Source: an uncultured Nitrospiraceae bacterium (lineage in GTDB: Bacteria > Nitrospirota > Nitrospiria > Nitrospirales > Nitrospiraceae). From it: a DNA stretch of 64,000 bases. Below the pieces are notes generated by a model. The model saw only the letters and a list, made by a program, of their open reading frames with translations, searched no databases and had not been told where the DNA came from. The stretch is from positions 160,001 through 224,000 of the forward strand of contig CAVSTP010000002.1 in the NCBI GenBank assembly GCA_963730935.1, written 5' to 3'. Positions within the stretch are counted from its first letter, which is position 1. Each line of letters opens with the position of its first letter. The position numbers and the translations under genes are program-made. Of this stretch, positions 14,546-36,227 are shown piece after piece.

Positions 14546-14563
14546 GTTTCATTCGAGAGGAGT

Positions 14564-14980
14564 CTAGCGCAGGGCCTTTCCAGTCGTGGTCATGGTCAAC
14601 TTGCCGTGCTTGACTCCCCTTACGCTGACCAACGCATCGGCAACTTTCTTGATATCCGAGCCGCGACCTTTAACCACTAACACTTCCAAACAATGATCGT
14701 GGTCGAGGTGGACGTGCATGCCGGACAGGATCTTTCCCTGGTAGTCATGCTGGATGTCGGTCAGCTTGGCCGTTAAGTCACGCACATGGTGGTCGTACAC
14801 GAAAGTGATCGTACCAACCGTTTCTTTGTTCTCGTCCCATTCCTGCCCGACCAGATTGTCCCGAATGAGATCCCGCAGCGCTTCGGACCGGTTGGTGTAG
14901 TGCCGCCGCCTGATGTGGCGATCGAATTCCTCGAGCAACCGTTGGTCTAATGAGACCCCAAATCGGACGAGTTGATGCAT
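14564..14980 (-). CDS. nikR: nickel-responsive transcriptional regulator
   Basis: RHH domain (RFGVS...NRSEALRDLIR); QHD and HVHLDHDHCLE Ni site. Confidence 0.95.
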   Translation of the reverse strand: MHQLVRFGVSLDQRLLEEFDRHIRRRHYTNRSEALRDLIRDNLVGQEWDENKETVGTITFVYDHHVRDLTAKLTDIQHDYQGKILSGMHVHLDHDHCLEVLVVKGRGSDIKKVADALVSVRGVKHGKLTMTTTGKALR

Positions 14981-15675: not shown

Positions 15676-17148
15676 ATGTTTGCCAACACTCGGCCGCTCA
15701 TCATGACGATCCTGACACTGCTGATCGGCGCGCCGGTCTTTGCTGCCAGCCACCGTGAAGCGCCGTTGATCGCGAACGATCCGGCGGCGGATATCACCGA
15801 TTTCTATGTGTTCCGCAGTTGGCAAGATTCCGCCAAGGCAATTCTGATCATGAATGTGATCCCTGGACAAGAGCCGGGGTCCGGTCCTAACTACTTCAAC
15901 TTCGCCGACGACGTCCTGTACGAGATCCACATCGACAACAATAAGAACAACATCGCCGCAAACATCACGTACCAGATCCGATTTAAGACCGAGCTCAGAC
16001 CTCCGGCCGATGTCTTCCCTCTCTCCTATGTGGCGCTCCCTCCGATCACCAACCTGAGCGGAGCCGGCTCGGAGGGATTGCTTCTCCGCCAAAGCTACAC
16101 GGTGACAGAGGTGCGTTACGGCGAGCACCCCAGAGACCTAGGGACAGGCACGATGTACGCGGTGCCGTCGAACGTCGGCCCGCGAACGACGCCGAATTAT
16201 GAACAACTCGCTTCCAAGGGCATCTTCCCCTTGAAGAACGGGGGCCGCGTCTTTGCCGGACAGCGGGACGAGACGTTCTACATCGATCTCGGTGGGACCT
16301 TCGACACACTGAATCTCCACGTCTCGCCAATCCTCTCGGCAGCCGACGACGCGAACGACGCCTTGGTGCTCGGCGCTGCGCGCGACACTTTCAGCGGCTT
16401 CAATGTGAACACGATCGCATTGGAAATCCCGATCAGCGATCTGACAGGTCCGAACGGGAACAAAGTAATCGGCGCCTATGCGACGACCAGTCGGCCGAAG
16501 GTGACGGTCCTGAAAAAGAACAGCGACCGAGAGAACAGCGCCCGTTTAGTACAGGTCGCGCGAATGGGCAATCCGTTGGTGAACGAACTAATTATCCCCA
16601 CGAACATGAAGGACAAATGGAATACAACCGATGCGGAGGACGAGGGGGACTTCGTCTCGTTTTATTGCAACTCGGCGCTCGCAACCGCGTTGAACGCGGT
16701 GTTCGGAACAGCCTTTCCGACCAGCAATCGGGAGGACCTCGTCAACGCATTGCTTCGTTATAGCCCGGGGGCACCGCTCTGCGGCGGAGGCAAGACGAGC
16801 GAAACGTTGTCTGATCTCCTGCGCGTGGATTTAGGCGTCCCTCCCACAGCGGCGGACAATCAGCGGAGACTCGGTCCCCTGGCCCACGATCCGTCAGGCA
16901 ACCCCACTCCGGACAGAGCGGGATGGCCGAACGGCCGGCGCCCGAATGACGACGTCACCGATGTGGCCTTACGGGTTGTGGCCGGCATCCTCAAGAATTC
17001 AGCTGTTCCTAATTTAGGAGATGGTGTGAATTTCAACGTGGGATCGGTTGGCGGCAGCAAGACCGCTAATGGAATCGCGACGGCTTTTCCGTTTCTCCCG
17101 ACACCGTTCGATGGACGAGATCGTCGCCATATCGATCCAGGAGAGTAG
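15676..17148 (+). CDS. DUF4331 family exported protein
   Basis: signal peptide then ASHREAP, DITDFYVF, RMGNPLVNEL, GWPNGRRPxDD. Confidence 0.88.
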   Translation: MFANTRPLIMTILTLLIGAPVFAASHREAPLIANDPAADITDFYVFRSWQDSAKAILIMNVIPGQEPGSGPNYFNFADDVLYEIHIDNNKNNIAANITYQIRFKTELRPPADVFPLSYVALPPITNLSGAGSEGLLLRQSYTVTEVRYGEHPRDLGTGTMYAVPSNVGPRTTPNYEQLASKGIFPLKNGGRVFAGQRDETFYIDLGGTFDTLNLHVSPILSAADDANDALVLGAARDTFSGFNVNTIALEIPISDLTGPNGNKVIGAYATTSRPKVTVLKKNSDRENSARLVQVARMGNPLVNELIIPTNMKDKWNTTDAEDEGDFVSFYCNSALATALNAVFGTAFPTSNREDLVNALLRYSPGAPLCGGGKTSETLSDLLRVDLGVPPTAADNQRRLGPLAHDPSGNPTPDRAGWPNGRRPNDDVTDVALRVVAGILKNSAVPNLGDGVNFNVGSVGGSKTANGIATAFPFLPTPFDGRDRRHIDPGE

Positions 17149-17166
17149 CTCACTCGGCTGATCACT

Positions 17167-17204
17167 GGGATGAGTGTGTCCGGTTTCCCGGACACACTCA
17201 TCCC
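17167..17204. repeat. perfect 17-bp intra-operonic hairpin
   Basis: GGGATGAGTGTGTCCGG-tttc-CCGGACACACTCATCCC; no U-tract. Confidence 0.85.
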
Positions 17205-17252
17205 GTGGGAAAAGTGCCTCGAGGCATTCAGACCCGAATCAAGAGAGGGCAC

Positions 17253-18206
17253 ATGTGGGTTCGAGTCGCTCAAGGAGACCAGATCGGAGGCTGGAGCGTC
17301 TCGCTCGTTCTCCATCTGACTCTGTTGAGTGTGATCTGGCCGGCACTCCAACAACTTCCGGCGCCGGTCTTGACGGAGCCCTTTCGCTGGAATGTGACCC
17401 TCGTTCAGTCCCAGCAACCGAGCGCAGCAGTCATGTCGTCGGGCGAAGCGTCTCTCCCCCATCAAGACTTACATGCTGTCGATGCGGCGACACAGAAGCC
17501 GGCACCGCCAAGACCGCCTCGTCCCTCCCTCGATCGATCACCAAGCAACGAAAATCGCATCACGGCTCACCCCGGCGCTGCGACGAGATCGGCGACAGTC
17601 ACAGTCCCGGCGCAAACCTCGCCTAACGTACCGGATGCCGCACCACCGACGTCTTCTATGACCGATCCACTGCCTGCGTCCCAAGAGTCTCCCCCCATAC
17701 CACACGAGAAGGCCGGTCAAATACAAAGGCTTGTTGCCACAGCACCAGTCCAGGCGGGGCCCACATCGACCGCATTGCCGCGAGAAGTGGAAACCCTGTC
17801 GCCACCTGCACCAGCCAGGATCGAGACTCCCGCAGTGATGCACGAGCCTTCTGCCCCATCGCCGGAACCCCCCGCTCCTGTTCCGTCGACAGCTTCCAGT
17901 GAGTTCTCTGGCCCTCGAGCGGATTACAGTTGGTTGCAACGGGCGGTGTCTCGCCGACTGGACGAACTGAAACGGTTCTCGCGACCATGGCTCGGGGACT
18001 CGACAAAGCTCAAGGTCCTGGTGAAGGCCGTCATTTCTAATTCTGGTGAACTGATGAAGATCGAAGTCGTCAAGAGTTCTGGATTGACACGGATCGATCA
18101 AGAGGCTTTGGCGCTGGTGCAGCGAGCCTTTCCCGTCTCGATGGACGAAGTCATCGACCGTCCCCAAATCGTAATGCGTATCCCGATCACCTATTCGCGT
18201 GATTGA
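17253..18206 (+). CDS. TonB family energy transducer (divergent C-terminal domain)
   Basis: TM SLVLH, Pro-rich linker, KSSG..ID..A motif; YP motif absent. Confidence 0.75.
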   Translation: MWVRVAQGDQIGGWSVSLVLHLTLLSVIWPALQQLPAPVLTEPFRWNVTLVQSQQPSAAVMSSGEASLPHQDLHAVDAATQKPAPPRPPRPSLDRSPSNENRITAHPGAATRSATVTVPAQTSPNVPDAAPPTSSMTDPLPASQESPPIPHEKAGQIQRLVATAPVQAGPTSTALPREVETLSPPAPARIETPAVMHEPSAPSPEPPAPVPSTASSEFSGPRADYSWLQRAVSRRLDELKRFSRPWLGDSTKLKVLVKAVISNSGELMKIEVVKSSGLTRIDQEALALVQRAFPVSMDEVIDRPQIVMRIPITYSRD

Positions 18207-18215
18207 AGGAGCACG

Positions 18216-19409
18216 ATGACCAGATGCTGCGGAGCAGGTTGTCTGATGGCGATTGCGTGGCTCACCTTGGGACTATCGTCCCCCACGTCGGGAGAGCCCT
18301 TTCTTCCCCAACAAGACACGCAAGTGCTAGAACGCCTCAGCGTCAAGTCATCTGATCCGGTGGCGCGAGAACTCAGGACCTTACGCGCGCGGCTATCGAG
18401 AAATCCACAAGACGTTGATGTCGCAGTATCGCTTGCGACCAAATTTGCTGCACAAGCGCGGTCGCTAGGAGATCCGAGATTTCTCGGTCAAGCGCAGGCC
18501 ATCTTGGCTCCTTGGTGGAACCTTCCGACACCGCCGCCCTCGGTTCTACTATTGCGAGCCACGATCCGCCAGAATGCGCATGAGTTCGATCTCGCGCTCG
18601 CCGATCTCGATGAGGTCTTGAGCCGGCAACCGACAAACGCTCAGGCGTGGCTGACGAAAGCGTCGATCCTTCAAGTTCAAGGACGATACGAGGAGGCTCG
18701 AGGTGCATGCCAGCCCTTGCTTCGATCGACCGGCCGGCATGTCGCACTCACCTGTTTGAGCGATATCGCCGGTCTGAGGGGCCAAGCCGCTCTTAGCCGC
18801 GATGTGCTGACCACGAGTCTGAGTCGTCCAGACATCTCCGTAGAGGAACGACTTTGGATTCTGACCATCTTGGCGGAGGTGGCCGCTCGCACCGGAGATC
18901 AACGAAATGCTGAAAGGTATTTTGAGGAAGCGCGAAGCATCGGCATGAAAGACCACTATCTCTTAGGGGCTTATGCCGATTTTCTACTCGATCAAGGCCG
19001 CGCGCAGGACGTCGTGGCGCTCCTGCAGCGCGATACGAGATCCGACGGATTGCTCTTACGTCTTGCGCTTGCCGAGCAGGCACTCCATGCACCCGCGTCA
19101 CAGGACCATACGGCCGAGCTTGCGGCCCGTTTTGCCGCCAGTCGTGAGCGAGGAACTCCTGTGCACTTGCGTGAAGAAGCGCGCTTCACTCTTGCGCTGC
19201 TGCAAGATTCACGGGCGGCGCTCCTCCTCGCCCAGAACAATTGGAAGATCCAAAAGGAACCTTCTGATGCCCGCCTGCTGCTCGAATGTGCCTGGGCAGC
19301 CGGTAACCGTCACGCAGCCAAACCTGTGCTCGAATGGCTCGACACGAACCATGTGGAAGGTGACAAGCTCCGACATCTGGCTGCACGGCTTCGAGAGGAG
19401 AGGCCGTAA
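18216..19409 (+). CDS. exported tetratricopeptide-repeat protein
   Basis: signal-like N-terminus; TPR helices (A..DLD.VL..QP.N..AW). Confidence 0.8.
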   Translation: MTRCCGAGCLMAIAWLTLGLSSPTSGEPFLPQQDTQVLERLSVKSSDPVARELRTLRARLSRNPQDVDVAVSLATKFAAQARSLGDPRFLGQAQAILAPWWNLPTPPPSVLLLRATIRQNAHEFDLALADLDEVLSRQPTNAQAWLTKASILQVQGRYEEARGACQPLLRSTGRHVALTCLSDIAGLRGQAALSRDVLTTSLSRPDISVEERLWILTILAEVAARTGDQRNAERYFEEARSIGMKDHYLLGAYADFLLDQGRAQDVVALLQRDTRSDGLLLRLALAEQALHAPASQDHTAELAARFAASRERGTPVHLREEARFTLALLQDSRAALLLAQNNWKIQKEPSDARLLLECAWAAGNRHAAKPVLEWLDTNHVEGDKLRHLAARLREERP

Positions 19410-20539
19410 TGCGCATCTTCCTCGTCATTGCGCTGCTTCTTATGAGCACGCCCGCCTGGGCTCATAAACCCAGCGACAGTTATCTCTCCCTCACTGTCCA
19501 TCAGGTTCGTGTGGAGGGTCGGTGGGACATCGCGCTGCGAGACTTGGACGACGCGATCGGACTGGACGGGGACGGGAATGGCGAGATCACATGGGGGGAG
19601 GTGCGATCCAGACACGACCAGATCGCTGCTTATGCACTCTCCCGCCTCACGCTTGCGTCAGGCGAGAGACGTTGCGCGACGAACGCCACCCGCCTGCTGA
19701 TCGACCATCACACGGACGGGGCCTACACGGTTCTCCTCTTCACAGCGACCTGTCCGGATCCAATAGAAGAGCTGCGCGCCGATTATCGGCTCTTGTTCGA
19801 TCTGGACGCTCAGCATAAAGGACTCCTGCGCCTAACTCATGGGTCTCATGCGTCCTTCACCACGAGCGCGATATTCAGCCAAGAGACCTCAGCTCAACGA
19901 TTCACGATCGGTGAAGGTTCACTGTGGCGTCAGGGTGGACAATACCTGCATGAAGGCATCTGGCACATCTGGCTAGGATTCGACCACCTCTTGTTTCTGC
20001 TCACACTCCTGTTGCCTGCAGTCCTCGTTCGAGTCGATCACCGCTGGCAAGCCATTGAAGATCTTTCATCCGCATCCTGGGAAGTGTTGCGCATTGTCAC
20101 GGCCTTTACCTTCGCACATTCTCTGACCTTGAGTCTCGCCACACTGGGAATCATGCAGTTGCCTTCACGACTCGTTGAATCAGCAATTGCGTCCTCGGTA
20201 ATTCTTGCTGGAGTGGCAAATCTGTATCCGGGGATCGCACAACGCCGTTGGGTGGTGGCATTCGCCTTTGGTCTCATCCACGGCTTTGGATTCGCCAGCG
20301 TGCTCTCAGATTTGGGATTGCCGCATGGCTCGTTGTTGGTCAGTCTTGTGAGTTTCAACGTCGGTGTTGAGATCGGCCAACTTGCGGTGGTAGTTCTGTT
20401 TCTTCCGCTAGCTCATGCCTTCCGCCGATCTTCGGCTTATCAGTTGATCGTCGTCAGAATTGGGTCTCTGGCAGTTATTGTCGTGGCGCTGCTATGGCTG
20501 GCTGAGCGGGCGTTCGACCTCAAACTTTTTCCGGTCTGA
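19409..20539 (+). CDS. HupE/UreJ family metal-transporter-like protein with N-terminal periplasmic domain
   Basis: AWA|HK, DGDGNGEITWGE, GIWHIWLGFDH, FTFAHSLTL, FGLIHGFGFA, FNVGVEIGQ. Confidence 0.88.
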   Translation: MRIFLVIALLLMSTPAWAHKPSDSYLSLTVHQVRVEGRWDIALRDLDDAIGLDGDGNGEITWGEVRSRHDQIAAYALSRLTLASGERRCATNATRLLIDHHTDGAYTVLLFTATCPDPIEELRADYRLLFDLDAQHKGLLRLTHGSHASFTTSAIFSQETSAQRFTIGEGSLWRQGGQYLHEGIWHIWLGFDHLLFLLTLLLPAVLVRVDHRWQAIEDLSSASWEVLRIVTAFTFAHSLTLSLATLGIMQLPSRLVESAIASSVILAGVANLYPGIAQRRWVVAFAFGLIHGFGFASVLSDLGLPHGSLLVSLVSFNVGVEIGQLAVVVLFLPLAHAFRRSSAYQLIVVRIGSLAVIVVALLWLAERAFDLKLFPV

Positions 20540-26114: not shown

Positions 26115-27191
26115 TCACCGTCCGGCAGTCCCGATGATCCGTTCCACACGATCATCACGGCCGCCGAGGTTTCGGTACTTGTGATACTGCGCCAGAGCGC
26201 GCGGCATGTCCTTACGGTGCAGCTCGTAAAACACGCCCAGATTATAGTGGGCTTCGGCGTAGTCGGGTTTCAACGCCACGGCCTTCTCGTATTCCTGTTC
26301 CGCCTCTTCGAGCTTGTTCATGCTGGTATAAATCACGCCGAGATTCATGTGCGCCTCGGCATACTCGGGCCGATACCGGATGACTTCGAGAAACTCCCGT
26401 TCCGCCTCGCTGGGTTTGTTCTGGCTGCGTAGAATAAATCCCAGGTTGTAATGGGCGTCCACGAGGTTGGGCTTGGCCGCAATCGCCTGCCGGTACGCAT
26501 AGGCGGCTTCCAGCAGGTCATTGTTCCGTTCTGCCAGACGGCCCGCCTGATACCATCCGTCGGCGTTTGTGGGGTGGGCTTTCGTCAACCGTGCGAGCAG
26601 CTTCCGGGCGGAGTCGTTGTTGCCCTCTGCTTCGTACAACATGGCCAGCCCGAAAAGTCCGTCCGCACTGGTGGGACGAACGGCGAGGAGGCGCTGATAC
26701 ACCTGCTTCGCAGCGGGAATGTCGTGCCGGCTTTCATAGAGCCGGGCAAGATCAAGATAGGAGTCCTCGTGCTTCGGCTCAATCTCGAGGGCCCGCTTGA
26801 GCGTCTGTTCCGCCTCTGTGGCCTTGCCTTGCGCGAGATACACTTCCGCCAAATCATTGAGCGCATCAGGGTACGCAGGCTTCAGCTTGAGCGCGTGCGT
26901 AAACGCATCGGCTGCCTCGCGGGGCCTTTTCTTGGCTTTGAAATAGAGTTGCCCCAACAGGTGATAGGCTTCGGCCGTGGCGCCGGACTCCACCGATTTC
27001 TCCAAAAACGCGATCGCCGCGTCAGCATCGCCGGACCTCCAGAGTTCCGTCGCCTGTTCGACCGCACGTTTACTGGAATCAGAGGGCGTTGCAGTACGAA
27101 GAAGCCCGGGTAAGAGCAGCACCCCACCAATGACGATCGACATGAGCAGCAGTGGTCGTGCAGGTGCCGTCAAGAGAACGCTCCCTACCAA
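26115..27191 (-). CDS. TPR repeat protein (exported or membrane-anchored)
   Basis: many canonical TPRs (P.YAEAHYNLG); start uncertain. Confidence 0.85.
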   Translation of the reverse strand: MVGSVLLTAPARPLLLMSIVIGGVLLLPGLLRTATPSDSSKRAVEQATELWRSGDADAAIAFLEKSVESGATAEAYHLLGQLYFKAKKRPREAADAFTHALKLKPAYPDALNDLAEVYLAQGKATEAEQTLKRALEIEPKHEDSYLDLARLYESRHDIPAAKQVYQRLLAVRPTSADGLFGLAMLYEAEGNNDSARKLLARLTKAHPTNADGWYQAGRLAERNNDLLEAAYAYRQAIAAKPNLVDAHYNLGFILRSQNKPSEAEREFLEVIRYRPEYAEAHMNLGVIYTSMNKLEEAEQEYEKAVALKPDYAEAHYNLGVFYELHRKDMPRALAQYHKYRNLGGRDDRVERIIGTAGR

Positions 27192-27270
27192 CGTTGCAGT
27201 CCGTACCGAACTATACGGTGGGTTGGCAGTGAAATCAACGCGAACAGCACCCTGTGATCAAAACCTCGAG

Positions 27271-29622
27271 CTAGAACAGTCCCAGCGTCACACCACCGTA
27301 AATGGCTCGGCCGTACCCGGCAAAGAACGCCTGTTGCCCGGCCGCTTGCGCCGTGGTTTCCCCCGTGACCACCTGGCCTGACGCGGCATATTTCATGTTC
27401 GCGATGTTGTCCACTTGGAGATAGAACTTGGCAAAACGGAACCAGGAATTGTTCACCTCTACAGTCTTATGGACGTTCACCGTCCCGATGAAATATGAGG
27501 GAATCCCAAATGTATTATTGTTGTTCAAGAAGTAGCTGTTGAAGTAATTGCCTTCGACCCAGCCTCCCCATCCGGACGGTTGATGATCGTACTCTACCTT
27601 CAAGTTCAGAATATCGGTCGGCACGTTGGGCACGTTCTTTCCATCGCGCACCAAAAATCCTGCAGCGGTCCGGTCGGAAAAATTAATGTACTTGGCATCG
27701 ATATGCGTATAGGCTCCTGAGAAGCGCAATCCCGACAATGGACGCCAATCGTATCGCGCTTCGATTCCGCGGTACTGCGATGAGTCGGCATTGACCGAGG
27801 CCGTATTCGATCCGGAAATCGTCTGGGTGATGATTTCGTTCTTGAAGAACGTCCAAAACCCGACGAGTTCGACGATCAGATCCTTCGTCAGTCTCGATTC
27901 CGTGCCGATCTCATTATTCCAATTCTTCTGCGGCTTCAAATTGAAATTTGCCCCGGGGAGACCGGTGATCGGATCCCTCGTAAGATTGCCGAACGTCGGG
28001 ATAGCATATCCGGTCGAGCTCCTGATCCAATGCCGATAGCCTTCCGCCGGCTTCCATGTGAGTGATGCTTCAGGTGCCCAATTTGTGTAGTCGCGGGTCG
28101 CGCTGGGCCTCGACGCCACTGCGCCGGAATTGTCATAGTTGATGGTGTCAATGGTGAGTTGCGACTGCTCAAACCCAAGGCCTGCAGCCAGAATCCATTT
28201 TGGAACGAATTCCAGTTCCTCGCGAAAACGGCCTCCGATGTTATTGATTCTTCCCCGATTGTTCTGAAGCAACGTTCCTCTGGTTCCAAATCCGGTCGCC
28301 AGATTCTGGAACGTCTCTCCCTCCTGTTCCATATTATTCAGAAAGAAACCGACGTAACTTTTGAGCGGCATCTCTCCGAGTCGACCATCGTGTCGCAAGT
28401 CCGTGTAGGTCTTGTAGTTGGGATTGACGTTATCGGTGATTTGGGAGAAATATTGGTTGATGTCTTTCACGTCATAGTCGGCTTCGATCGTGAGCACCGT
28501 ATTGGCATTGAGTTGACGCTCGTACATGCCTCCGACGATCGTACGCCGATCGATACGCTGCTGATGGAGTAGTTCGGCATTCGCGCAGGCGGGATTGTAG
28601 GTTCCGGGTGTACAGGGCGTCTGGGCACCGCCGGCCTGGCGATCGTCCGCATTGAATTGCGCCTCCGTCAATCTGGTCGGTACGCGCGTATCCAACCAGT
28701 TTGAAATCGCCTTGAAATAAAAACTCTGCTTGTCGTCGATGGTGAACCGCAAATTGAAGTTCAAGGTCTGAGTATTGTAGTCGCTGTTTTTGATGAATCC
28801 ATCTTCGGCCACATTGCTGGCGAACAAGGATACATCAAGGTTTTGGTATTGCTTCCCTACGGCGAAGGCCTGCTTGAAAAAGCCATACGATCCTCCGGAC
28901 AGGAAGGTTTCAAAGCCGTTGATGTCGCTGCCGCGCCTGGTCCTGAAGTGGACCATGCCCCCGAGCGCGTAATTGTCGTACAGCGACGACGATGCCCCCC
29001 GGATAACCTCTGTGCTTCTCATGAACCAGGGGTCTTGCATGTCGAGTCGCGACAACCCGTCGGATTGCGTCTGGCTGAACCCGTCTTCGTAGATTTTGAT
29101 ATCACGAACCGCGAATGTGGTCTTCGCCCCCTGCCCACGGATCATGATGCTGAAGTCGCGCGGGCCGTTCGCCTGGCGAAGCGCGATGCCAGGTAGCGAC
29201 TGAAGTGACTCCTGCATCGTACGAGTCGGCTGGGAATCTGTCTCCGCCGGCACAGTGGCATCCAACGAGATTCCCTCGGGTCGTTTTTGCAGTCGGTTGC
29301 TGACGATGCTCATGTCGGCAAGGTCATAATGCGGTACTGCTGTTGCTTGAGCCTCCCCCGTCGCTTCAGGTTCGGCGTGTTCCTTGATGATAGCGGGGCG
29401 TTCGGCTTCCGGTTTGGCGCTCTCCTTTTGCTGCTGAATCTCGTCCAGTTCTTTCAATATATCGTTGAGCTGCTCGCGCAATTCCTGTTCGCGTGATGAG
29501 CCGGTCGGACCGGCGGACGGCGCATCCTGGGCGAACGCCTCGCCTCCTCCGGCCATGAATGTCGTCAGGCATCCGATCAAAATTGCGCATCTCAGCGCGA
29601 CGGCACCTATACGTTCAAACAT
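27271..29622 (-). CDS. TonB-dependent outer-membrane receptor
   Basis: AAGGAG RBS before ATG 29622; signal peptide; plug IRGQG, RGASSSLY; C-terminal GGVTLGLF. Confidence 0.9.
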   Translation of the reverse strand: MFERIGAVALRCAILIGCLTTFMAGGGEAFAQDAPSAGPTGSSREQELREQLNDILKELDEIQQQKESAKPEAERPAIIKEHAEPEATGEAQATAVPHYDLADMSIVSNRLQKRPEGISLDATVPAETDSQPTRTMQESLQSLPGIALRQANGPRDFSIMIRGQGAKTTFAVRDIKIYEDGFSQTQSDGLSRLDMQDPWFMRSTEVIRGASSSLYDNYALGGMVHFRTRRGSDINGFETFLSGGSYGFFKQAFAVGKQYQNLDVSLFASNVAEDGFIKNSDYNTQTLNFNLRFTIDDKQSFYFKAISNWLDTRVPTRLTEAQFNADDRQAGGAQTPCTPGTYNPACANAELLHQQRIDRRTIVGGMYERQLNANTVLTIEADYDVKDINQYFSQITDNVNPNYKTYTDLRHDGRLGEMPLKSYVGFFLNNMEQEGETFQNLATGFGTRGTLLQNNRGRINNIGGRFREELEFVPKWILAAGLGFEQSQLTIDTINYDNSGAVASRPSATRDYTNWAPEASLTWKPAEGYRHWIRSSTGYAIPTFGNLTRDPITGLPGANFNLKPQKNWNNEIGTESRLTKDLIVELVGFWTFFKNEIITQTISGSNTASVNADSSQYRGIEARYDWRPLSGLRFSGAYTHIDAKYINFSDRTAAGFLVRDGKNVPNVPTDILNLKVEYDHQPSGWGGWVEGNYFNSYFLNNNNTFGIPSYFIGTVNVHKTVEVNNSWFRFAKFYLQVDNIANMKYAASGQVVTGETTAQAAGQQAFFAGYGRAIYGGVTLGLF

Positions 29623-29652
29623 GATGCGGCTCCTTACGTCATGAACGACACG

Positions 29653-29692
29653 CGTCCACGGGCGCACTTATTGCCTTTGCGGACCGTGGACG
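29653..29692 (-). promoter_or_regulatory. hairpin between leader peptide 2 and the TBDR start
   Basis: CGTCCACGG ... CCGTGGACG perfect 9-bp stem plus inner CGCA/TGCG. Confidence 0.7.
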
Positions 29693-29722
29693 ATTTAGGA
29701 TGAATTTCGTTGGAGAAACGAG

Positions 29723-30025
29723 TCAGCGAGGAGGTCCGCGGGAATGTATCAGAGCGGCAAAGAGACGCGTCTGTGGTGCGGCGCTGTATAATCGCAGCAG
29801 AGCGACCACAGCAAAGACGACGCCAAGGGGAAGACCGGCATGAATGGTGATAGTGGGGTTGGCCTGGCAGGCCCAGGCACACAGCGCCGAGTGCGCTACG
29901 TGATCGGGGCTGTGGTGATGAGCCTGCTGTTCTGCATGTAGCAAGAGACAGCAAGAAGTGCCGATTGCCAGGACGGCATAGAGCACGACCATCCCAATGG
30001 CGAGTGGGGCAATCAGGCGTTTCAT
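29723..30025 (-). CDS. CutF/CruR-like (DUF2946-like) leader, putative ribosome-arrest peptide 2
   Basis: N-terminal hydrophobic signal, His-rich tract, LCAWAC, C-terminal RGPPR. Confidence 0.78.
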   Translation of the reverse strand: MKRLIAPLAIGMVVLYAVLAIGTSCCLLLHAEQQAHHHSPDHVAHSALCAWACQANPTITIHAGLPLGVVFAVVALLRLYSAAPQTRLFAALIHSRGPPR

Positions 30026-30594
30026 GGTTGCCGGTTGAGGACGTGTCGGACGAGGGCGATCGATTCTTGGCTGTCCCAGGCTCGGGGCCCCACGGCCCGG
30101 CCGAGCGCGTGACCGTTCTGATCGATCAACACGGTGGTCGGGAGTCCACGCACCGTGAAGAGGCGAGAGAGTTCCTGGTCTTCATCGAAGAGCACGGGCA
30201 GCTTGATGCCGAGATGATCGAGAAACTGCTTGATCCCTTTCGGATGGATGTCCGCGGTGACGGTCACCACGAGAACCTGTCCAGGGTCGAATTGCGACTG
30301 TAGCCGTGCGAGCGAGGGCATCTCCTCCTTGCACGGCCCGCACCAGGTGGCCCAAAAATTGAGCAACACGACCTTGCCTGCCAAATGCTGCGAACCTAGC
30401 GTATCGCCGTCGAGCGCCTTGAGATCAAATGCCACCGCCGGATCGCCTGCAGACGTTCGTGTCACACCGAGCGCCCCGAAGGGATCGCCTGCTGCGGAAG
30501 GGGCACCGTACAGCGGAGCGCCGGAACCCGACAGCCCCACACATGCGGCAACGACCACCGCACAAGCCATGCGCCGTAGTCTGCTACGGTCCAT
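30022..30594 (-). CDS. TlpA/ResA-like thiol-disulfide oxidoreductase
   Basis: LNFWATWCGPCKEEMP, VRGLPTT. Confidence 0.9.
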   Translation of the reverse strand: MDRSRLRRMACAVVVAACVGLSGSGAPLYGAPSAAGDPFGALGVTRTSAGDPAVAFDLKALDGDTLGSQHLAGKVVLLNFWATWCGPCKEEMPSLARLQSQFDPGQVLVVTVTADIHPKGIKQFLDHLGIKLPVLFDEDQELSRLFTVRGLPTTVLIDQNGHALGRAVGPRAWDSQESIALVRHVLNRQP

Positions 30595-31891
30595 TGGGTC
30601 GGATCTCCGCTTCTGCCACCGAGACTCCTGGCAACTGCATCGTCTGAACCACCAGACGATGAGCTGGCATCGCATGCTCTTTCCACCCCATCACCACCGT
30701 CCCCTGCTGATTGACGGCAATCGTCGGCGTTTGTCCGTTTTTTTCGTTGAGTTTTCGTGGCGCGCTAAATGACTGTCCTCGGTCGAGTGAATGGCTCATC
30801 ACGACTTCGCGGCGAACCGGTGATTGTTCCTCCCAGATCACGATGACTCGTCCCTCCGGATCGACGGCCATCTGAGGATGGTCGGGGAAAGTGCCCTTTG
30901 AACGGTTCAGCTGCCTTTTTTCGGAGAACCTCTTCCCTTGATCGTCAGAATAGGCCAGATAGATCGCGGGCGTCTCGTCGGCGCCTTCCGTATACCAAAC
31001 GACATAGAGACGTCCTGACTGGTCGACACCCAACGACGCTGGCCGGTGCGGGCAAGCCTGATACACCCATCGGTCATTGCCGACGACGACTGGCGGCAAA
31101 AACGTCTGTCCGCCGTCCGTCGATCGTGCGACCACGGTCTCACGGATGTTGCCGTCGAAAATTTTGCGCCAGGCGACATAGACGACCCCGTCGGCAGACA
31201 TGGCAATCGAAGTCCGGCAGCAGACACAGGTATTGTCATCAACTTTAAAGTTCTTCGTGATCGTTCGGCCCTGGTCTGTCGATCTTGCCACGAAGGTGCC
31301 GGGCTCCTTCTTCCCTTCCCGGCCGTCGATCCAGGCGAAATGCAGCACGCCGTCCGGAGCAACATTGAGCGCATCGAAAGTGTGCTGAATCACCTGGTCA
31401 TCGTCGTTGACCAATGTCGATGGGCCGAACGAGCGTCCGCCGTCAGTGGACCGACTCAGTCTCAACTCTCCCGAAAATGGCTTGTCGGGAGTCATCTTCG
31501 GATGGGTCATCGACCAGGTGACAAAGACGTCCTGGCCCCGGACGATGAGGGCCGGAGCCTCCTGGCGGTAATACGGACTTTCACCAGGCTGATTGACGGC
31601 GACTGGAGCGCCCAGCGGGCCGCCCGGCGCTTTCGATCGGGCGAACAGTATGGTGCGCGTGTCCTTGTCCTCTTCGACCCAAGCAGCCGCAATCATGCCT
31701 TCATCGTCGATCTGGACGGAGGGACCCACCACACCTTTTACATTATGTACCGTCACATATTTAGGTCCGAGTGCGAGAGAAGATTCCGGGGACTCGGCCG
31801 AGCGCAGTTCCGTCGACCACCCAACGGCAAGGGCAACGGCCACCGTGCACGCCCAGGACAGACGGTGTATTTTGTGTGATGGCTTGCTCAC
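30584..31891 (-). CDS. exported BNR/Asp-box (sialidase-fold) beta-propeller protein
   Basis: five S-x-D-x-G-x-[ST] Asp boxes; CVCC and ACPH motifs. Confidence 0.8.
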   Translation of the reverse strand: MSKPSHKIHRLSWACTVAVALAVGWSTELRSAESPESSLALGPKYVTVHNVKGVVGPSVQIDDEGMIAAAWVEEDKDTRTILFARSKAPGGPLGAPVAVNQPGESPYYRQEAPALIVRGQDVFVTWSMTHPKMTPDKPFSGELRLSRSTDGGRSFGPSTLVNDDDQVIQHTFDALNVAPDGVLHFAWIDGREGKKEPGTFVARSTDQGRTITKNFKVDDNTCVCCRTSIAMSADGVVYVAWRKIFDGNIRETVVARSTDGGQTFLPPVVVGNDRWVYQACPHRPASLGVDQSGRLYVVWYTEGADETPAIYLAYSDDQGKRFSEKRQLNRSKGTFPDHPQMAVDPEGRVIVIWEEQSPVRREVVMSHSLDRGQSFSAPRKLNEKNGQTPTIAVNQQGTVVMGWKEHAMPAHRLVVQTMQLPGVSVAEAEIRPNGP

Positions 31892-31906
31892 GGCATCCCC
31901 GCCCTT

Positions 31907-32923
31907 TTAATTCGCCAGGCTGTACACGATCGGAAGGCTCACGACGATCTCGGGTTTTCCGATAGCATGCTTCATATGCAGCGGGCACGCGAGTTTCACT
32001 GCTTCAATTGCGGCCGCATCTAGGATCTGATGGCCAGAACTTTTTTGAACGGAGACTTCGGCCAGATGGCCGTCGGCTCGAATGACGGCTTTCAAAATGA
32101 CTTTACCTTCTTGGCCGTTCAAGCGGGCCGAACTGGGATATCGCTTCAGCTCAGCGACCCGTCTCCAGAGCGACTCGGCGAGCCAGCGATGATCTACCTT
32201 GACGTCGGGTCCAGAGGCTGCTTTTGCGGTCTGCATCGGCGCTTCCTGCGAAGCGGAATTGGGAGGCGACGACACAGCCGACGCCGACTCCGCTGAAGAA
32301 ACGAGAGATTCTGACGCCGATGGTTTCGCGGGAGTTTCCATCGGCCGAGATTCGACCGCTTCTGTCGGCTGCCTGTGCGCAATCACCGGATCCGCAGGCG
32401 GAACCGAATCAGTTTCCCTCGGGGCCGTCACTTGTTCGGGCTGTGGCTTGGGAGCCTCGACGATCTGCTGGTCAACCGACTCGGCGATCTTTTCTTGAAC
32501 AGGCTTCACCGGCGCTGTTACCGGTTCGGTGTTCGCCGGTGGCGCCGGCTCTTCTCGCTGTTCGACCGGCTTCGGCGGCGGCGCCTCAGGATGCACCATC
32601 TGCACGGTTTGCTGCGGCGCAACCCGCTGCACGACGGTGTCCGGTACCGATTCGACAGGCCGCGAAGCGGCCACACGTGGGGGCGGTTGTACTGTCGGGA
32701 TGACCTGCTTGACCGGGTCCGGCGCTGGCAGTGGGGTTGGCTCCGATGTTGAATCCGATTTCACCGGCTCAACCAAGGCCACGTCCCACTTAAAGGGTTC
32801 TTCTTGAAAAACGGGTCGGACTTGGGCGGCAAAGAGCATCGCCAGGACGACCACGATCCCGTGTAGTGTCAGCGAGACACCCCAAGCGGGAATGAGAAAA
32901 CGATTTTCGTTCACGCACGTCAT
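31907..32923 (-). CDS. tonB: TonB family energy transducer
   Basis: SLTLH TM, Pro-rich linker, YP..AR..G.EG.V...SSG..LD.AA. Confidence 0.88.
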   Translation of the reverse strand: MTCVNENRFLIPAWGVSLTLHGIVVVLAMLFAAQVRPVFQEEPFKWDVALVEPVKSDSTSEPTPLPAPDPVKQVIPTVQPPPRVAASRPVESVPDTVVQRVAPQQTVQMVHPEAPPPKPVEQREEPAPPANTEPVTAPVKPVQEKIAESVDQQIVEAPKPQPEQVTAPRETDSVPPADPVIAHRQPTEAVESRPMETPAKPSASESLVSSAESASAVSSPPNSASQEAPMQTAKAASGPDVKVDHRWLAESLWRRVAELKRYPSSARLNGQEGKVILKAVIRADGHLAEVSVQKSSGHQILDAAAIEAVKLACPLHMKHAIGKPEIVVSLPIVYSLAN

Positions 32924-33010
32924 GCGGAAAGCACCATCTAATAGAGATTGCCCAGACGAGGCCGGTCCTCTGAGAAAACCGGACCAGAACGCGTATACCG
33001 TCAGACTAGG

Positions 33011-33319
33011 CTAGGTAAGGGGGTTCGGTGGACCGCGGGAGACGGGTGAAGAAGAGAAGTTGCTCGAACAGACGGACGGTGCACAGAATTCGAGAAGCGA
33101 GACCGGCGAACGCTCGACCAGCGCAGGAGCGGTCACCGTATCGAGGACCTGACCCGCGGCGCACATCCAGTTGCAAAGCACGGTAGCATGCGCGGCTTTA
33201 TGATGATGCGCGTGGTGAGATTCGTGTGAAATGGATTGCGCCGAGGCGAGCCCTCCGACAGCGAGCAGGCAGAGGACTAATAAGAGGGCGAGCGATTGCT
33301 TCATCAACCGAGGCGTCAT
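33011..33319 (-). CDS. CutF/CruR-like (DUF2946-like) leader, putative ribosome-arrest peptide 1
   Basis: signal peptide (ASA|Q), HESHHAHHH, LCNWMC, C-terminal RGPP. Confidence 0.78.
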   Translation of the reverse strand: MTPRLMKQSLALLLVLCLLAVGGLASAQSISHESHHAHHHKAAHATVLCNWMCAAGQVLDTVTAPALVERSPVSLLEFCAPSVCSSNFSSSPVSRGPPNPLT

Positions 33320-33512
33320 AGCGTTCCGCACTACCAAGACCGGTCGAGACGATGGTACCCAACCGGATGGGAGAGCGTCAAGCATGAGGGATCGGAACCC
33401 ATTGTCTTCCTGATAGGATTCAGAAAATGTTTCCGGTATACTGCCTGAACTGGGTTGCCGCCACCCCGGCATCCTCTCCATAACAAAGATCCGGAGCAAT
33501 CCCGAACGCACG

Positions 33513-36227
33513 ATGCTGACACAACTTCTGAATCTTATTTTCGGCAGCAAGAACGACCGTGAAATCAAGGCCTTGATGCCAATCGTCCAGCGCATCAACG
33601 CCCTGGAACCGGAGCTGACTCCGCTGTCCGATCACGCCCTGGCCGACAAAACGCAGGCCTTCAAGAAGCGCTTGGCTGTCGACGAAACCCTTGACGATAT
33701 TCTTCCTGAAGCGTTCGCGGTCTGTCGGGAGATGTCCCGCCGAAAGCTCAACATGCGGCATTTCGACGTGCAGCTGATCGGCGGAATGATCTTGCACAAG
33801 GGCCGGATCTCCGAAATGAAGACCGGCGAAGGCAAAACGCTCGTCGCGACGTTGCCGATCTATCTCAACGCCCTCGAGGGCAAAGGCGCCCATCTGGTCA
33901 CGGTCAACGACTACCTGGCTAAACGCGACGCACAGTGGATGGGGCAGCTCTACCATGCGCTCGGCCTCTCCACAGGCGTCATCCAGCATGATGCCTCGTT
34001 CATCTACGACCCGACGTACGATGCCGCCGACAAGCGGCTGCAGCATCTTCGCCCCTGCACCAGATTCGAGGCATACCGCGCCGACATTACGTACGGCACG
34101 AACAACGAATACGGGTTCGACTACCTTCGTGACAATCTCGTCGTGACGGCCTTGGATCAATGCGTGCAGCGCGAACTGAATTTCGGGATCGTGGACGAAG
34201 TGGATAGCATCCTGATCGACGAAGCACGGACGCCGCTGATCATTTCCGGCCCGACCGACCAGACGACGGACCTTTATTACCGCATCAATGCCATCATTCC
34301 GCAGCTCAAGCCGGAACACGACTACACGATAGAAGAGAAGACCAAGACCGCCGCGCTCACGGAAGAAGGCAATGTGCGCGTGGAAAAGCTATTGGGCGTC
34401 GACAATCTCTATGATGCCGACAACATGGATCTCGTGCACCACGTCGTGAAGGCCCTGCAGGCCTATGCGCTGTACAAGCGCGATGTGGACTATGTGGTCA
34501 AGGACGGGGAAGTGATCATCGTAGACGAATTCACCGGGCGATTGATGCCCGGACGTCGATGGAGCGACGGCTTGCACCAGGCGGTTGAAGCCAAAGAGGG
34601 CGTCAAAATCGCCAACGAGAATCAGACGCTGGCCTCGGTGACCTTCCAGAACTATTTCCGCATGTACAAGAAACTGGGCGGCATGACCGGCACGGCCGAC
34701 ACCGAGGCGGCGGAATTCGCAAAGATCTACAACCTTGACGTGAACGTCGTCCCGACAAACCGGAAAATGATCCGGCTGGACTATGCCGACGTCGTGTACC
34801 GCACGGAGAAGGAAAAATTCGCCGCGATCGTCGAAGAGATCAAGGACTGTCACCAACGGGGACAGCCGGTACTGGTCGGCACGATCTCCATCGAGAAATC
34901 GGAAAAAATTGCCGGCATGCTCAACCGCAACGGCATCAAACACAACGTGCTCAACGCAAAACAGCACGAACGGGAAGCCGAGATCGTCGCGCAGGCCGGC
35001 CGCAAGGGCGCCGTGACGATCGCGACGAACATGGCGGGACGCGGGACGGACATCCTTTTAGGCGGCAATGCCGACTTCATGTTCAAGCAGGTCCTCTATC
35101 GTGAGGAAGACTTGCCGGACGAGCGGAAGCTTACCGTCTATGAAGAGATCCGCACGGATTGCGAGAAGAACAAGCAGGAGGTGCTCGGCCTCGGCGGACT
35201 CCATATCCTGGGAACGGAACGGCACGAGAGCCGCCGTATCGACAACCAGCTGCGAGGCCGTGCGGGCCGTCAGGGCGATCCGGGCTCGTCCCGGTTCTAT
35301 CTGTCGCTTGAAGACGACCTGATGCGCATCTTCGCTTCCGAACGTGTCTCGCAGCTCATGCTCAAGCTCGGCATGGAAGAAGGCATCCCGATCGAGCACG
35401 GGATGGTTACGCGCGCCATTGCCAACGCCCAAAAGAAGGTCGAAGCGCACAATTTTGAGATCCGCAAACAACTGCTTGAGTACGACGACGTCATGAACAA
35501 GCAGCGGGAAGTGATCTACCAGCACCGACGGGCTGTCCTGAGCGGCGAAAACCTGTCTGACGACCTGCGACAGATGATGGGAGCGATGGTCGAGTCCGCG
35601 CTCAATGTCTATTGCCCTGCCGAACAGTATCCGGAAGAGTGGGACATGAAAGGTCTCACCGAGATGATGCAGGGCCAGTTCGGGCTGGACATCACGCAAG
35701 GTAAGCAGGACAGCGGCGAATCGCTCAGGGACGTCGGCCGGGACGCGCTCCTTGAAGATCTGAAGGCCCAGGTCCAGGACGCCTGCGAACGGAAGGAAAA
35801 GGAACTGGGGCCGGAACTCATGCGGTTCCTGGAGAAGAATTTCATGCTGCAGGTGATCGACCATCATTGGAAGGACCATCTGCTGGCGATGGACCATTTA
35901 CGCGACGGCATCGGCCTGCGCGGGTACGGCCAGAAAGATCCGCTGATCGAATACAAACGCGAAGGATACGACCTATTCGCCGGCATGATGGAACGCATTA
36001 AGTCGGACACCATCGAACGGCTCTTCCTGGTGCAAGCCGTTCGTGAAGGTGAGCGCTCCGCCCCTCCGCCTCCCGTGATATCACGGCCGCAGCCGAAACT
36101 CACGTTGAATCGCGGGGAAGAACCGGTTTCCACGCAAACAGTCCATCGCAGTGACGATAAGGTGGGGCGCAATGACCCCTGTCCCTGTGGCTCCGGCAAA
36201 AAATATAAGAAGTGCCACGGGGCGTAG
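33513..36227 (+). CDS. secA: preprotein translocase ATPase SecA
   Basis: [49 protein letters not shown]. Confidence 0.98.

Follow-up and report, generated by a model that had tools for sequence, protein, structure and literature searches.

Predicted CruR/CutF-like arrest leaders recur within a putative metal-import transcript of the Nitrospiraceae

Organization of the leader-containing cluster

We analyzed a 64,000-nucleotide (nt) stretch of DNA (hereafter the window; contig CAVSTP010000002.1, positions 160,001 to 224,000) from the 4.05-Mb genome of an uncultured Nitrospiraceae bacterium. Its minus strand carries a gene cluster, divergent from secA, that encodes TonB, a TonB-dependent receptor and two short leader proteins resembling the arrest leaders CruR and CutF. 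The new element is that leaders of this kind appear to be reused repeatedly inside one predicted transcript. A preliminary description of the window had proposed a metal-import operon with two serial checkpoints, one leader gating the energizing and processing genes and the other the receptor. The nearest loci to this cluster belong to Nitrospira and other Nitrospiraceae, N. moscoviensis included.

The Pfam scan agreed with the gene order of that description, identifying TonB_C, BNR propeller, TlpA-like thioredoxin, TonB-dependent receptor and TPR domains in succession, and both leader open reading frames (ORFs) were found where it had placed them, at 33011-33319(-) and 29723-30025(-). The cluster starts with a sigma70-type promoter, TTGACG-18-TACCAT (33352..33381, minus strand, as are all features below except secA), located by promoter scan and alignment. 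Leader 1 (33011..33319; 102 residues) consists of a signal peptide with an AxA site, a His tract, CxxxC (C49 to C53, 33175-33161), a polar 41-residue spacer, RGPP (33037-33026) and the tail NPLT. Around its arrest codons lies a C/U-rich, G-poor tract, behind which comes the 87-nt intergenic region with a GC hairpin from 32985; together (32924..33080) they are a candidate Rho loading site and pause. The following tonB gene (31907..32923; Pfam TonB_C, E 1.7e-16; TIGR01352) has a weak ribosome-binding site. Next come a periplasmic beta-propeller of the BNR type, whose CxCCR and CPHR motifs are conserved (30584..31891), and a TlpA/ResA-like thioredoxin with WCGPC (30022..30597), whose TGA overlaps the ATG of leader 2. 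Leader 2 (29723..30025; 100 residues) has a hydrophobic N-terminus, an extra Cys, a His tract, CxxxC (C49 to C53, 29881-29867), a hydrophobic 42-residue spacer, RGPP (29740-29729) and a final Arg. Its tail and the 100-nt intergenic region behind it are again C/U-rich (29623..29740), and the centroid structure places here a hairpin (29692-29653) followed by the strong ribosome-binding site AAGGAG (29635-29630) of the TonB-dependent receptor gene (27271..29622), whose nearest characterized relative is PqqU/YncD. The TPR gene (26115..27191) is a neighbor that is probably ungated by the leaders; its own conserved promoter, TTGATT-17-TATAGT (27210..27238), likely marks the end of the leader-gated unit. 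The divergent gene at 33513..36227 on the plus strand, identified from its sequence as secA, is a fixed landmark of the cluster and lies downstream of no leader.

Signature and coding character of the leaders

The motifs LCNWMC (leader 1) and LCAWAC (leader 2) were confirmed, with the Cys residues at positions 49 and 53 and the Arg of RGPP at position 95 or 96, so that the spacers of 41 and 42 residues also stand; RGPP itself, which had been called terminal, is followed by four residues in leader 1 and by one in leader 2. We searched stop-to-stop ORFs of at least 50 residues across the whole genome for the full signature, CxxxC-41/42-R[AG]PP within 10 residues of the stop. Exactly 2 of the 44,959 ORFs carried it, and both were the leaders described here; the control tails A[AG]PP, K[AG]PP and S[AG]PP gave no match among the same ORFs. 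When orthologues of at least 50% identity were compared, differences at third codon positions were about twice as frequent as at first or second positions (499 vs 263/259 for leader 1 in 19 orthologues; 491 vs 269/223 for leader 2 in 15), as expected for coding DNA. Both leaders are genuine coding genes.

A profile search of the genome revealed one further leader, located ahead of another receptor on contig C4, with His replacing the second Cys. This third leader (G000:C4:1221687-1222100(-), locus L157) reads CxWxQHH for CxWxC, with RAPP at equal distance, and precedes an 812-residue TonB-dependent receptor; an apparent cation-efflux gene and a CobW-type GTPase gene, named by sequence reading, lie nearby. 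We consider it a candidate variant tuned to Zn, Co or Ni.

Conservation of the leaders and multi-leader arrays

Since the leader DNA is too poor in conserved columns for a pattern search, loci were collected via the BNR protein. The best 80 of 192 loci encoding it were taken, and the set therefore leans towards close kin. BNR matches in family f4 (L048-L050), without the Cys motifs and without any leader, were dropped as non-orthologues. Among 39 aligned leaders, the only invariant residues were the Cys pair of CxxxC (39/39) and the Arg and both Pro of R[AG]PP, whose second position is Ala or Gly; the motifs on which the proposal had been built are thus conserved in orthologues. The 80 loci contained 214 leader matches, every one on the BNR strand, with a spacer of 41 in 100 and of 42 in 108 (208/214; six could not be scored). 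One leader was present in nine loci, many of them clipped by contig ends, two in 33, three in 19, four in 13 and five in six. Five leaders were reached within loci of no more than 17 kb, and longer stretches held six co-oriented leaders in about 13 kb (G067) and about 19 kb (G145). Synteny bore out the arrangement, as a leader followed tlpA in all 55 informative loci and adjoined the 5' end of secA in 61 of 63. In relatives, cassettes of a leader plus its cargo are strung together in varying order, with up to five or six leaders per cluster, and for these a fixed split between "energizing genes" and "receptor" is too narrow.

The leader profile matched 59 of 60 sampled genomes of the family, with at least two matches in 53 and nine in one, although profile matches per genome are not strict copy numbers. 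In a sample of the phylum, it matched all genomes of two families of the order (23/23 and 10/10) and 3 of 117 others. A library-wide search yielded 480 leader clusters at 50% identity; among the top 150 representatives, 144 contained RxPP and CxxxC, with spacers of 41 (65), 42 (77) or 44 (2). By these profile matches, the feature appears strongly conserved and family-wide in the Nitrospiraceae.

Several observations on individual arrays are recorded here. In locus L033, a 133-residue ORF (L033:14787-15188(-)) ending in RGPPFLSY, with a His/Cys tract and a different Cys pattern, comes immediately after a family leader and is itself followed by a receptor and a PepSY_TM gene, which places two leaders back to back. 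Small genes for excisionase-like helix-turn-helix proteins recur within arrays (L133:12646-12990, L136:10168-10521, L144:6776-7123, L038:676-966), sometimes right behind a leader, and may add a regulatory layer. In locus L044 (G006:C51), frameshifts disrupt BNR, tlpA, copA and the start of leader 2, reflecting either assembly errors or cluster decay. Two short contigs labelled Betaproteobacteria and Cytophagia (L073, L124) carry a Nitrospira-type cluster, with BNR identity of 68-70%, and are probably misbinned.

Two leader subtypes

The preliminary description had ascribed a single design to both leaders. They are, in fact, 27% identical and belong to two clades differing in export signal and spacer. 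In a midpoint-rooted tree of 208 leaders, all 69 receptor leaders fell into one clade (0.81) and all first leaders into the other (0.97), supports that are rough given such short sequences. First leaders had a spacer of 41 in 62/62, an AxA site in 57/62 and a hydrophobic spacer in 5/62, the remaining spacers being polar. Receptor leaders, in turn, had a spacer of 42 in 69/69, an AxA site in 1/69, a hydrophobic spacer in 56/69 and an extra Cys in 68/69, mostly 24 residues before CxxxC. Leader 2 of the window follows this pattern with a hydrophobic N-terminus that, judged by motif, has no AxA site. In the 41-spacer clade, the Cys pair is preceded by three near-invariant His residues (94-100%). 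When the first Pro occupies the P-site, the second Cys of either leader lies 44-45 residues from the transferase center. The ribosome tunnel accommodates 30-35 residues, which would put the Cys site just outside the ribosome at arrest, further on by roughly the length of a translocon, in agreement with the original suggestion of a position beyond the tunnel. A further subtype, with a CxWHC leader, precedes a 520-residue lipoprotein-like protein without a Pfam match in 24 loci (for example, L031:14952-16508 and L133:4358-5914).

Promoters and translational coupling

The head promoter (33381-33352) was invariant in CTTGAC and in the T, A, A and T positions of the -10 element in 12/12 aligned orthologues, beside which no conserved operator was found. 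A strict promoter pattern, from a matrix trained on first leaders and detecting sigma70-type sites only, was present before 58 of 60 secA-adjacent leaders, 3 of 145 other leaders and none of 71 overlap-coupled leaders. The ATGA overlap between tlpA and leader 2 is present at 30022-30025, as had been described, and 67 of 68 receptor-leader orthologues retain an NTGA stop/start overlap; among 78 overlaps of coupled leaders, the gene upstream is tlpA-like in 70. Leader 2 has no ribosome-binding site in the window, and the terminator scan found no intrinsic terminator after either leader. The presence of a promoter before first leaders and its absence before coupled ones favors a single transcript, and we consider it probable that the leaders act on it in series. 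The proposed cascade gains from the invariant motif and spacers, the conserved overlap and the restriction of the promoter to the head, and loses the TPR gene, which had been included in the operon. In 17 of 57 informative loci it stands behind the receptor, and in 16 of those 17 it has its own TTGATT-17/18-TATAGT promoter, for which reasons we place it, in all probability, outside the leader-gated unit.

RNA contigs mapped to the N. moscoviensis locus L061, where the cluster takes the two-leader form (two runs, one study), were not counted, since contigs cannot show absence, starts or levels. Coverage includes secA as well as the TPR gene, with pieces listed from 12584 and 12603, close to its predicted promoter, and 1 of the 15 listed pieces, of 152 nt, falls in the leader-to-receptor stretch, where depth is mostly zero.

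The gap between leader 1 and secA contains a second invariant block (about 33405-33440 in the window, and in orthologues too), which reads AGTATAC ... GAATCCTATC on the minus strand and, on the plus strand, as a secA promoter, TAGGAT-17-TATACT. Elsewhere in the window, NikR followed by a TonB-dependent receptor (12491-14980(-)) faces genes for DUF4331, a TonB-like protein, a 397-residue protein and a HupE/UreJ protein (15676-20539(+)); together they probably form a separate nickel uptake region.

mRNA sequence around the arrest codons

In both leaders, a bubble of C over G (C>G bubble) is centered on the Arg codon. For leader 1, C minus G reached +25 points in the window and averaged +23 in 14 orthologues, compared with -1.5 ± 9.5 at 1,625 ORF ends. 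The pyrimidine excess at the arrest codons persisted after amino-acid correction, with a mean z for synonymous excess over the last 18 codons of 2.7 in leader 1 (14/14 orthologues) and 1.95 in leader 2 (15/15); no C-G excess was found in the middle of the spacer. A rho gene is encoded in the genome. Taken with it, the C/U-rich, G-poor mRNA at the Arg codons matches the cruR layout at the level of a sequence signature.

Masking of the Shine-Dalgarno (SD) sequence was assessed against recoded controls. Pairing of the tonB SD with the leader-1 tail showed no excess (0.36 vs 0.37; 11/21 loci). The receptor SD paired with the ribosome-covered region of leader 2 above controls (0.51 vs 0.38; 47/67), the Pro-Pro codons of leader 2 were CCTCCT in 24 of 67 orthologues compared to about 2% expected, and in the centroid structure of the window the RGPP codons pair directly with the receptor SD. 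Folds of the whole regions were no more stable than those of shuffles (z -0.89 and -0.65). Whether by the Rho route or by SD masking, a stalled ribosome would turn the next gene on.

Comparison with known systems

The closest known system is CruR (Bp2923, DUF2946/PF11162) of the Bordetella pertussis cruR-crtA(bfrG)-crpH genes, as described in PMC9426467, PMC12992588 and PMC12914433. The function of CruR depends on RAPP, on CxxC and on the distance between them, and is exerted via Rho at a C>G bubble (PMC9426467); its arrest was toeprinted with the first Pro in the P-site, RGPP being the most robust arrest motif and the Arg of RAPP/RGPP giving intrinsic arrest (text of PMC12992588). The leaders described here share with CruR an exported upstream ORF of about 100-145 residues, a Cys pair separated by a constant distance from an R[AG]PP close to the C-terminus, the C>G bubble at the 3' end, a long intergenic region and a TonB-dependent receptor downstream, and leader 2 also shares the semi-conserved extra Cys. 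The Ala/Gly choice at the second position of R[AG]PP equals the set tolerated for RAPP/RGPP arrest in the text of PMC12992588. Unlike CruR, with its CxxC and 45-residue spacer, they carry CxxxC (39/39 leaders and 144/150 representatives) and spacers of 41/42, occur several to a cluster with the internal ones joined by stop/start overlap, and precede a PqqU-like receptor. CruR homologues are described as first in their operon, which fits leader 1 but not leader 2, and Nitrospira is absent from Table S1 of the CruR survey (PMC9426467).

CutF of the Rhodobacter capsulatus cutFOG genes and the "CutF-like" set (texts of PMC8456105, PMC9973294 and bioRxiv 10.1101/2025.02.05.636593) share with our leaders CxxxC (PMC8456105, PMC9973294), an N-terminal export signal and possible masking of the downstream SD. 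Following the rules of that set, both leaders are shorter than 150 residues and have PP within 15 residues of the end and a same-strand gene within 1 kb, with gaps to the next gene of 87 and 100 nt. In contrast, CutF ends in EGPPPRL without Arg, has a spacer of 38 at the equivalent position and controls a multicopper oxidase that copper switches on, the opposite polarity. CutF-like paralogues are reported typically in distinct neighborhoods in these texts, whereas here several share one cluster. The leaders can probably be counted as CutF-like in all but the signal type of leader 2, and most likely work like CruR.

We surveyed DUF2946 pairs in 201 genomes of the phylum of G226 (labelled Betaproteobacteria). 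DUF2946 was present in 41 genomes, in at least two copies in 15, and as a co-oriented pair within 1-2.4 kb in three: L154 (G419:C76), L155 (G286:C108) and L156 (G369:C2). These are DUF2946-PCuAC-DUF2946-OprC loci, with PCuAC scanned in two of the three; two read DUF2946 (RASP), PCuAC, DUF2946 (RAPP), OprC, while the third has its inner leader overlapping the stop of PCuAC. As in our cluster, a C>G bubble is present and two leaders follow each other on one strand, the second standing between a periplasmic accessory gene (whose stop it overlaps or trails by about 10 nt) and the gene of a TonB-dependent receptor. Unlike in our cluster, the second leader is CxxC-45/46-RAPP, the first ends in RASP, the receptor scores above the OprC (TIGR01778) cut-off, and there are two leaders only, in 3 of 41 DUF2946-positive genomes. 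The first leaders of these loci end in NPRASP, and one of them has no CxxC. A serial layout of canonical leaders at copper-receptor loci speaks for both the mechanism and a connection with copper, and makes uniqueness harder to claim.

The preliminary description had known of no operon with two such leaders. We likewise found no account of serial RAPP/RGPP or DUF2946 leaders in one operon, nor any mention of these leaders in Nitrospira, in the literature texts, while figures and supplements of PMC9426467, PMC9973294 and PMC12992588 could contain either; the DUF2946 pairs ahead of OprC nevertheless parallel the layout. The mgtM and mgtP ORFs of Salmonella mgtCBR are likewise two short ORFs in series on one transcript, but, according to PMC3641672, both lie in one 5' leader and sense ATP and proline, and they are not exported arrest peptides among cargo genes.

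Cargo genes and the sensed signal

The receptor scored 185.7 bits with NF041535 (cut-off 1200). Its best PDB matches were 6v81/9c4o (YncD/PqqU; E 8e-36), followed by weak matches to heme and metallophore receptors, with neither OprC nor CrtA named among them. A structure model of the BNR protein (pLDDT 85) matched only distant generic propellers, sialidases and lectins at 10-18% identity and gave no specific assignment; an Atlas look-up returned "sialidase" clusters only. A BNR homologue with the same Cys motifs occurs in a single-leader Ralstonia operon comprising DUF2946 (CxxC-46-RAPP), a TonB-dependent receptor, BNR and a redoxin, and other homologues adjoin multicopper-oxidase fragments and a heavy-metal P-type ATPase, or CopC and amoCAB. 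Arrays in relatives also carry ExbBD, further receptors, a putative outer-membrane barrel with an N-terminal Cys pair, cytochrome P460-like proteins, weakly HMA-like proteins (below the cut-off) and a small metal-binding protein. The genes copA and dsbA follow the cluster in a subset of loci; copA lies beyond the TPR promoter and an opposite-strand gene.

The second commonest leader cargo is a protein of 360-400 residues (L031:13393-14469, L143:1401-2510, L150:7999-9171), for which two scanned representatives gave a weak Phenol_MetA_deg barrel match and which is a candidate metal porin. Its Nitrospiraceae copies have an N-terminal CG[AS]V[TSN]CF motif, and a weak match to this family also stands behind the single leader of G037 (family f2).

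We favor copper, with some reserve, as the sensed signal. The nearby nickel import has a NikR of its own, which counts in favor of copper, and TlpA reduces the CxxxC of ScoI before copper loading (text of PMC6669012).

Discussion

The evidence assembled above suggests the following model. While copper is scarce, each leader would stall its own ribosome at RGPP, on the model of CruR and other RAPP/RGPP peptides, and keep the genes downstream on; once the His/CxxxC site bound copper, the ribosome would be released and the import genes shut off. At leader 1, the stalled ribosome would block Rho-dependent termination before tonB, as in CruR. Leader 2 would be translated only by ribosomes coupled from tlpA, so that it could act only if the first checkpoint had been passed, and its stalled ribosome would both block Rho and unmask the receptor ribosome-binding site. 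With two stalls in series, receptor output would be the AND of both, giving a steeper or staged shut-off. The TlpA protein may keep CxxxC reduced, as it does for ScoI, and the gated cargo, being import machinery, argues for CruR polarity, that is, metal off. That the leaders are arrest peptides seems very likely to us; the model as a whole, from one transcript and two CruR/CutF-like stalls to release by copper, we put at a probability of about 0.5. A wider version, in which up to six arrest cassettes on one transcript form subtypes (cleaved and soluble, or membrane-anchored with a hydrophobic spacer) that read different metals, compartments or redox states, with coupling passing permission along and a two-leader form at proteobacterial oprC loci, is more speculative and we hold it doubtful.

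Several results weigh against this model. The genomes compared are kin, so that counts over them are not independent. As to the ligand, the receptor has no TIGR01778 match, appears closest to the pyrroloquinoline quinone (PQQ) transporter PqqU rather than to OprC, is 22% identical to the Ralstonia receptor over part of its length only, and shows no invariant Cys, few invariant His or Met residues and nothing that is clearly a copper site. PCuAC, Sco and CopC were all missing from the recurrent array proteins scanned as representatives, and the invariant His residues suit Ni, Co or Zn as well. As to the mechanism, 20 of 67 orthologues do not beat the SD-pairing control, and the anti-SD helix shows no pairwise covariation (own pairs -13.5 vs mismatched pairs -14.05 kcal/mol), so that Rho may be all that the C/U bias serves. 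The promoter matrix, trained on first leaders, sees sigma70-type sites only, and a usable SD precedes 17 of 60 coupled leaders. As to kinship with the known systems, CxxxC and a probably cleavable signal make leader 1 resemble CutF, of opposite polarity. The DUF2946 hidden Markov model gave no match to leader 1 and 14.6 bits for leader 2 (cut-off 23.7); 16 of 39 family members matched weakly at E<=1 (best E 0.0014), none of 25 scanned representatives reached the cut-off (best 20 bits), and nothing scored above it in five Nitrospiraceae genomes.

The same serial arrest switch might instead respond to another signal, namely Zn, Ni or Co at the His site or the thiol-disulfide state of CxxxC set by TlpA/DsbA, possibly per subtype. 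The three near-invariant His residues of the 41-spacer clade, the tlpA-like gene ahead of the coupled leader in 70/78 overlaps, the Cys-rich exported cargo, the subtype differences in export signal and spacer hydrophobicity and the PqqU-like receptor would all suit such a signal, and RAPP/RGPP upstream ORFs also precede thioredoxin and DsbA genes (text of PMC12992588). However, both characterized relatives sense copper, the BNR homologues sit with copper genes and the nearby nickel uptake has NikR. Furthermore, the third leader of the genome, near zinc-type genes, has His for the second Cys, which suggests that the two-Cys form is tuned to a softer metal. We regard a signal other than copper as unlikely, though it is the strongest of the alternatives.

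Less plausible still is parallel action, in which each leader would start a transcription unit of its own, driven by an internal promoter for a different sigma factor. Relatives have their cassettes in shuffled order, and a scan for sigma70-type sites would pass over such promoters. Yet the 4-nt overlap is kept in 67/68 and leaves no intergenic space, so that an internal promoter would have to sit within the tlpA coding sequence; no promoter precedes any of 71 coupled leaders, and leader 2 is without an SD in the window.

We give slightly less credit to CutF polarity, under which periplasmic copper would induce the stall and turn on a cluster for copper handling or detoxification. CxxxC with a Sec signal is as in CutF (text of PMC9973294), the anti-SD arrangement of leader 2 resembles the CutF stem-loop, and copA and dsbA follow in a subset of loci. 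Against this, TonB, ExbBD, TonB-dependent receptors and the putative outer-membrane barrel are import machinery, Arg gives intrinsic arrest (text of PMC12992588) while CutF, with EGPPP, has none (text of PMC8456105), and copA stands beyond the separate TPR promoter and an opposite-strand gene. It is very improbable that the small proteins monitor secretion or act as periplasmic metal chaperones, with an RGPP of no metal-dependent regulatory role, for although leader 1 and secA share a promoter region in 61/63 loci and export signals and His tracts fit small chaperones, secA is divergent and so beyond cis control by leader 1, and a spacer of fixed length and free sequence, with nucleotide-level selection at the arrest codons, makes sense only for a nascent-chain sensor.

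CruR and CutF have been described as single leaders heading operons, and here the same kind of leader recurs within one cluster, up to six times. The serial layout is not unique to the Nitrospiraceae, as canonical DUF2946 pairs in another phylum also stand in series; the oprC-type pairs thereby offer a second lineage for testing serial control. The 41- and 42-residue spacers and the two subtypes are natural variants for studying how a metal outside the tunnel releases or induces arrest, and in which compartment. Because the leaders escape the Pfam DUF2946 model, surveys built on it miss them; their profile matches 59 of the 60 genomes sampled from a family to which major nitrifiers belong. If the serial reading is true, AND or staged logic can be built by linking arrest peptides in a chain; if the wider cascade reading is true, these bacteria would possess a multi-input logic cascade built of nascent peptides.

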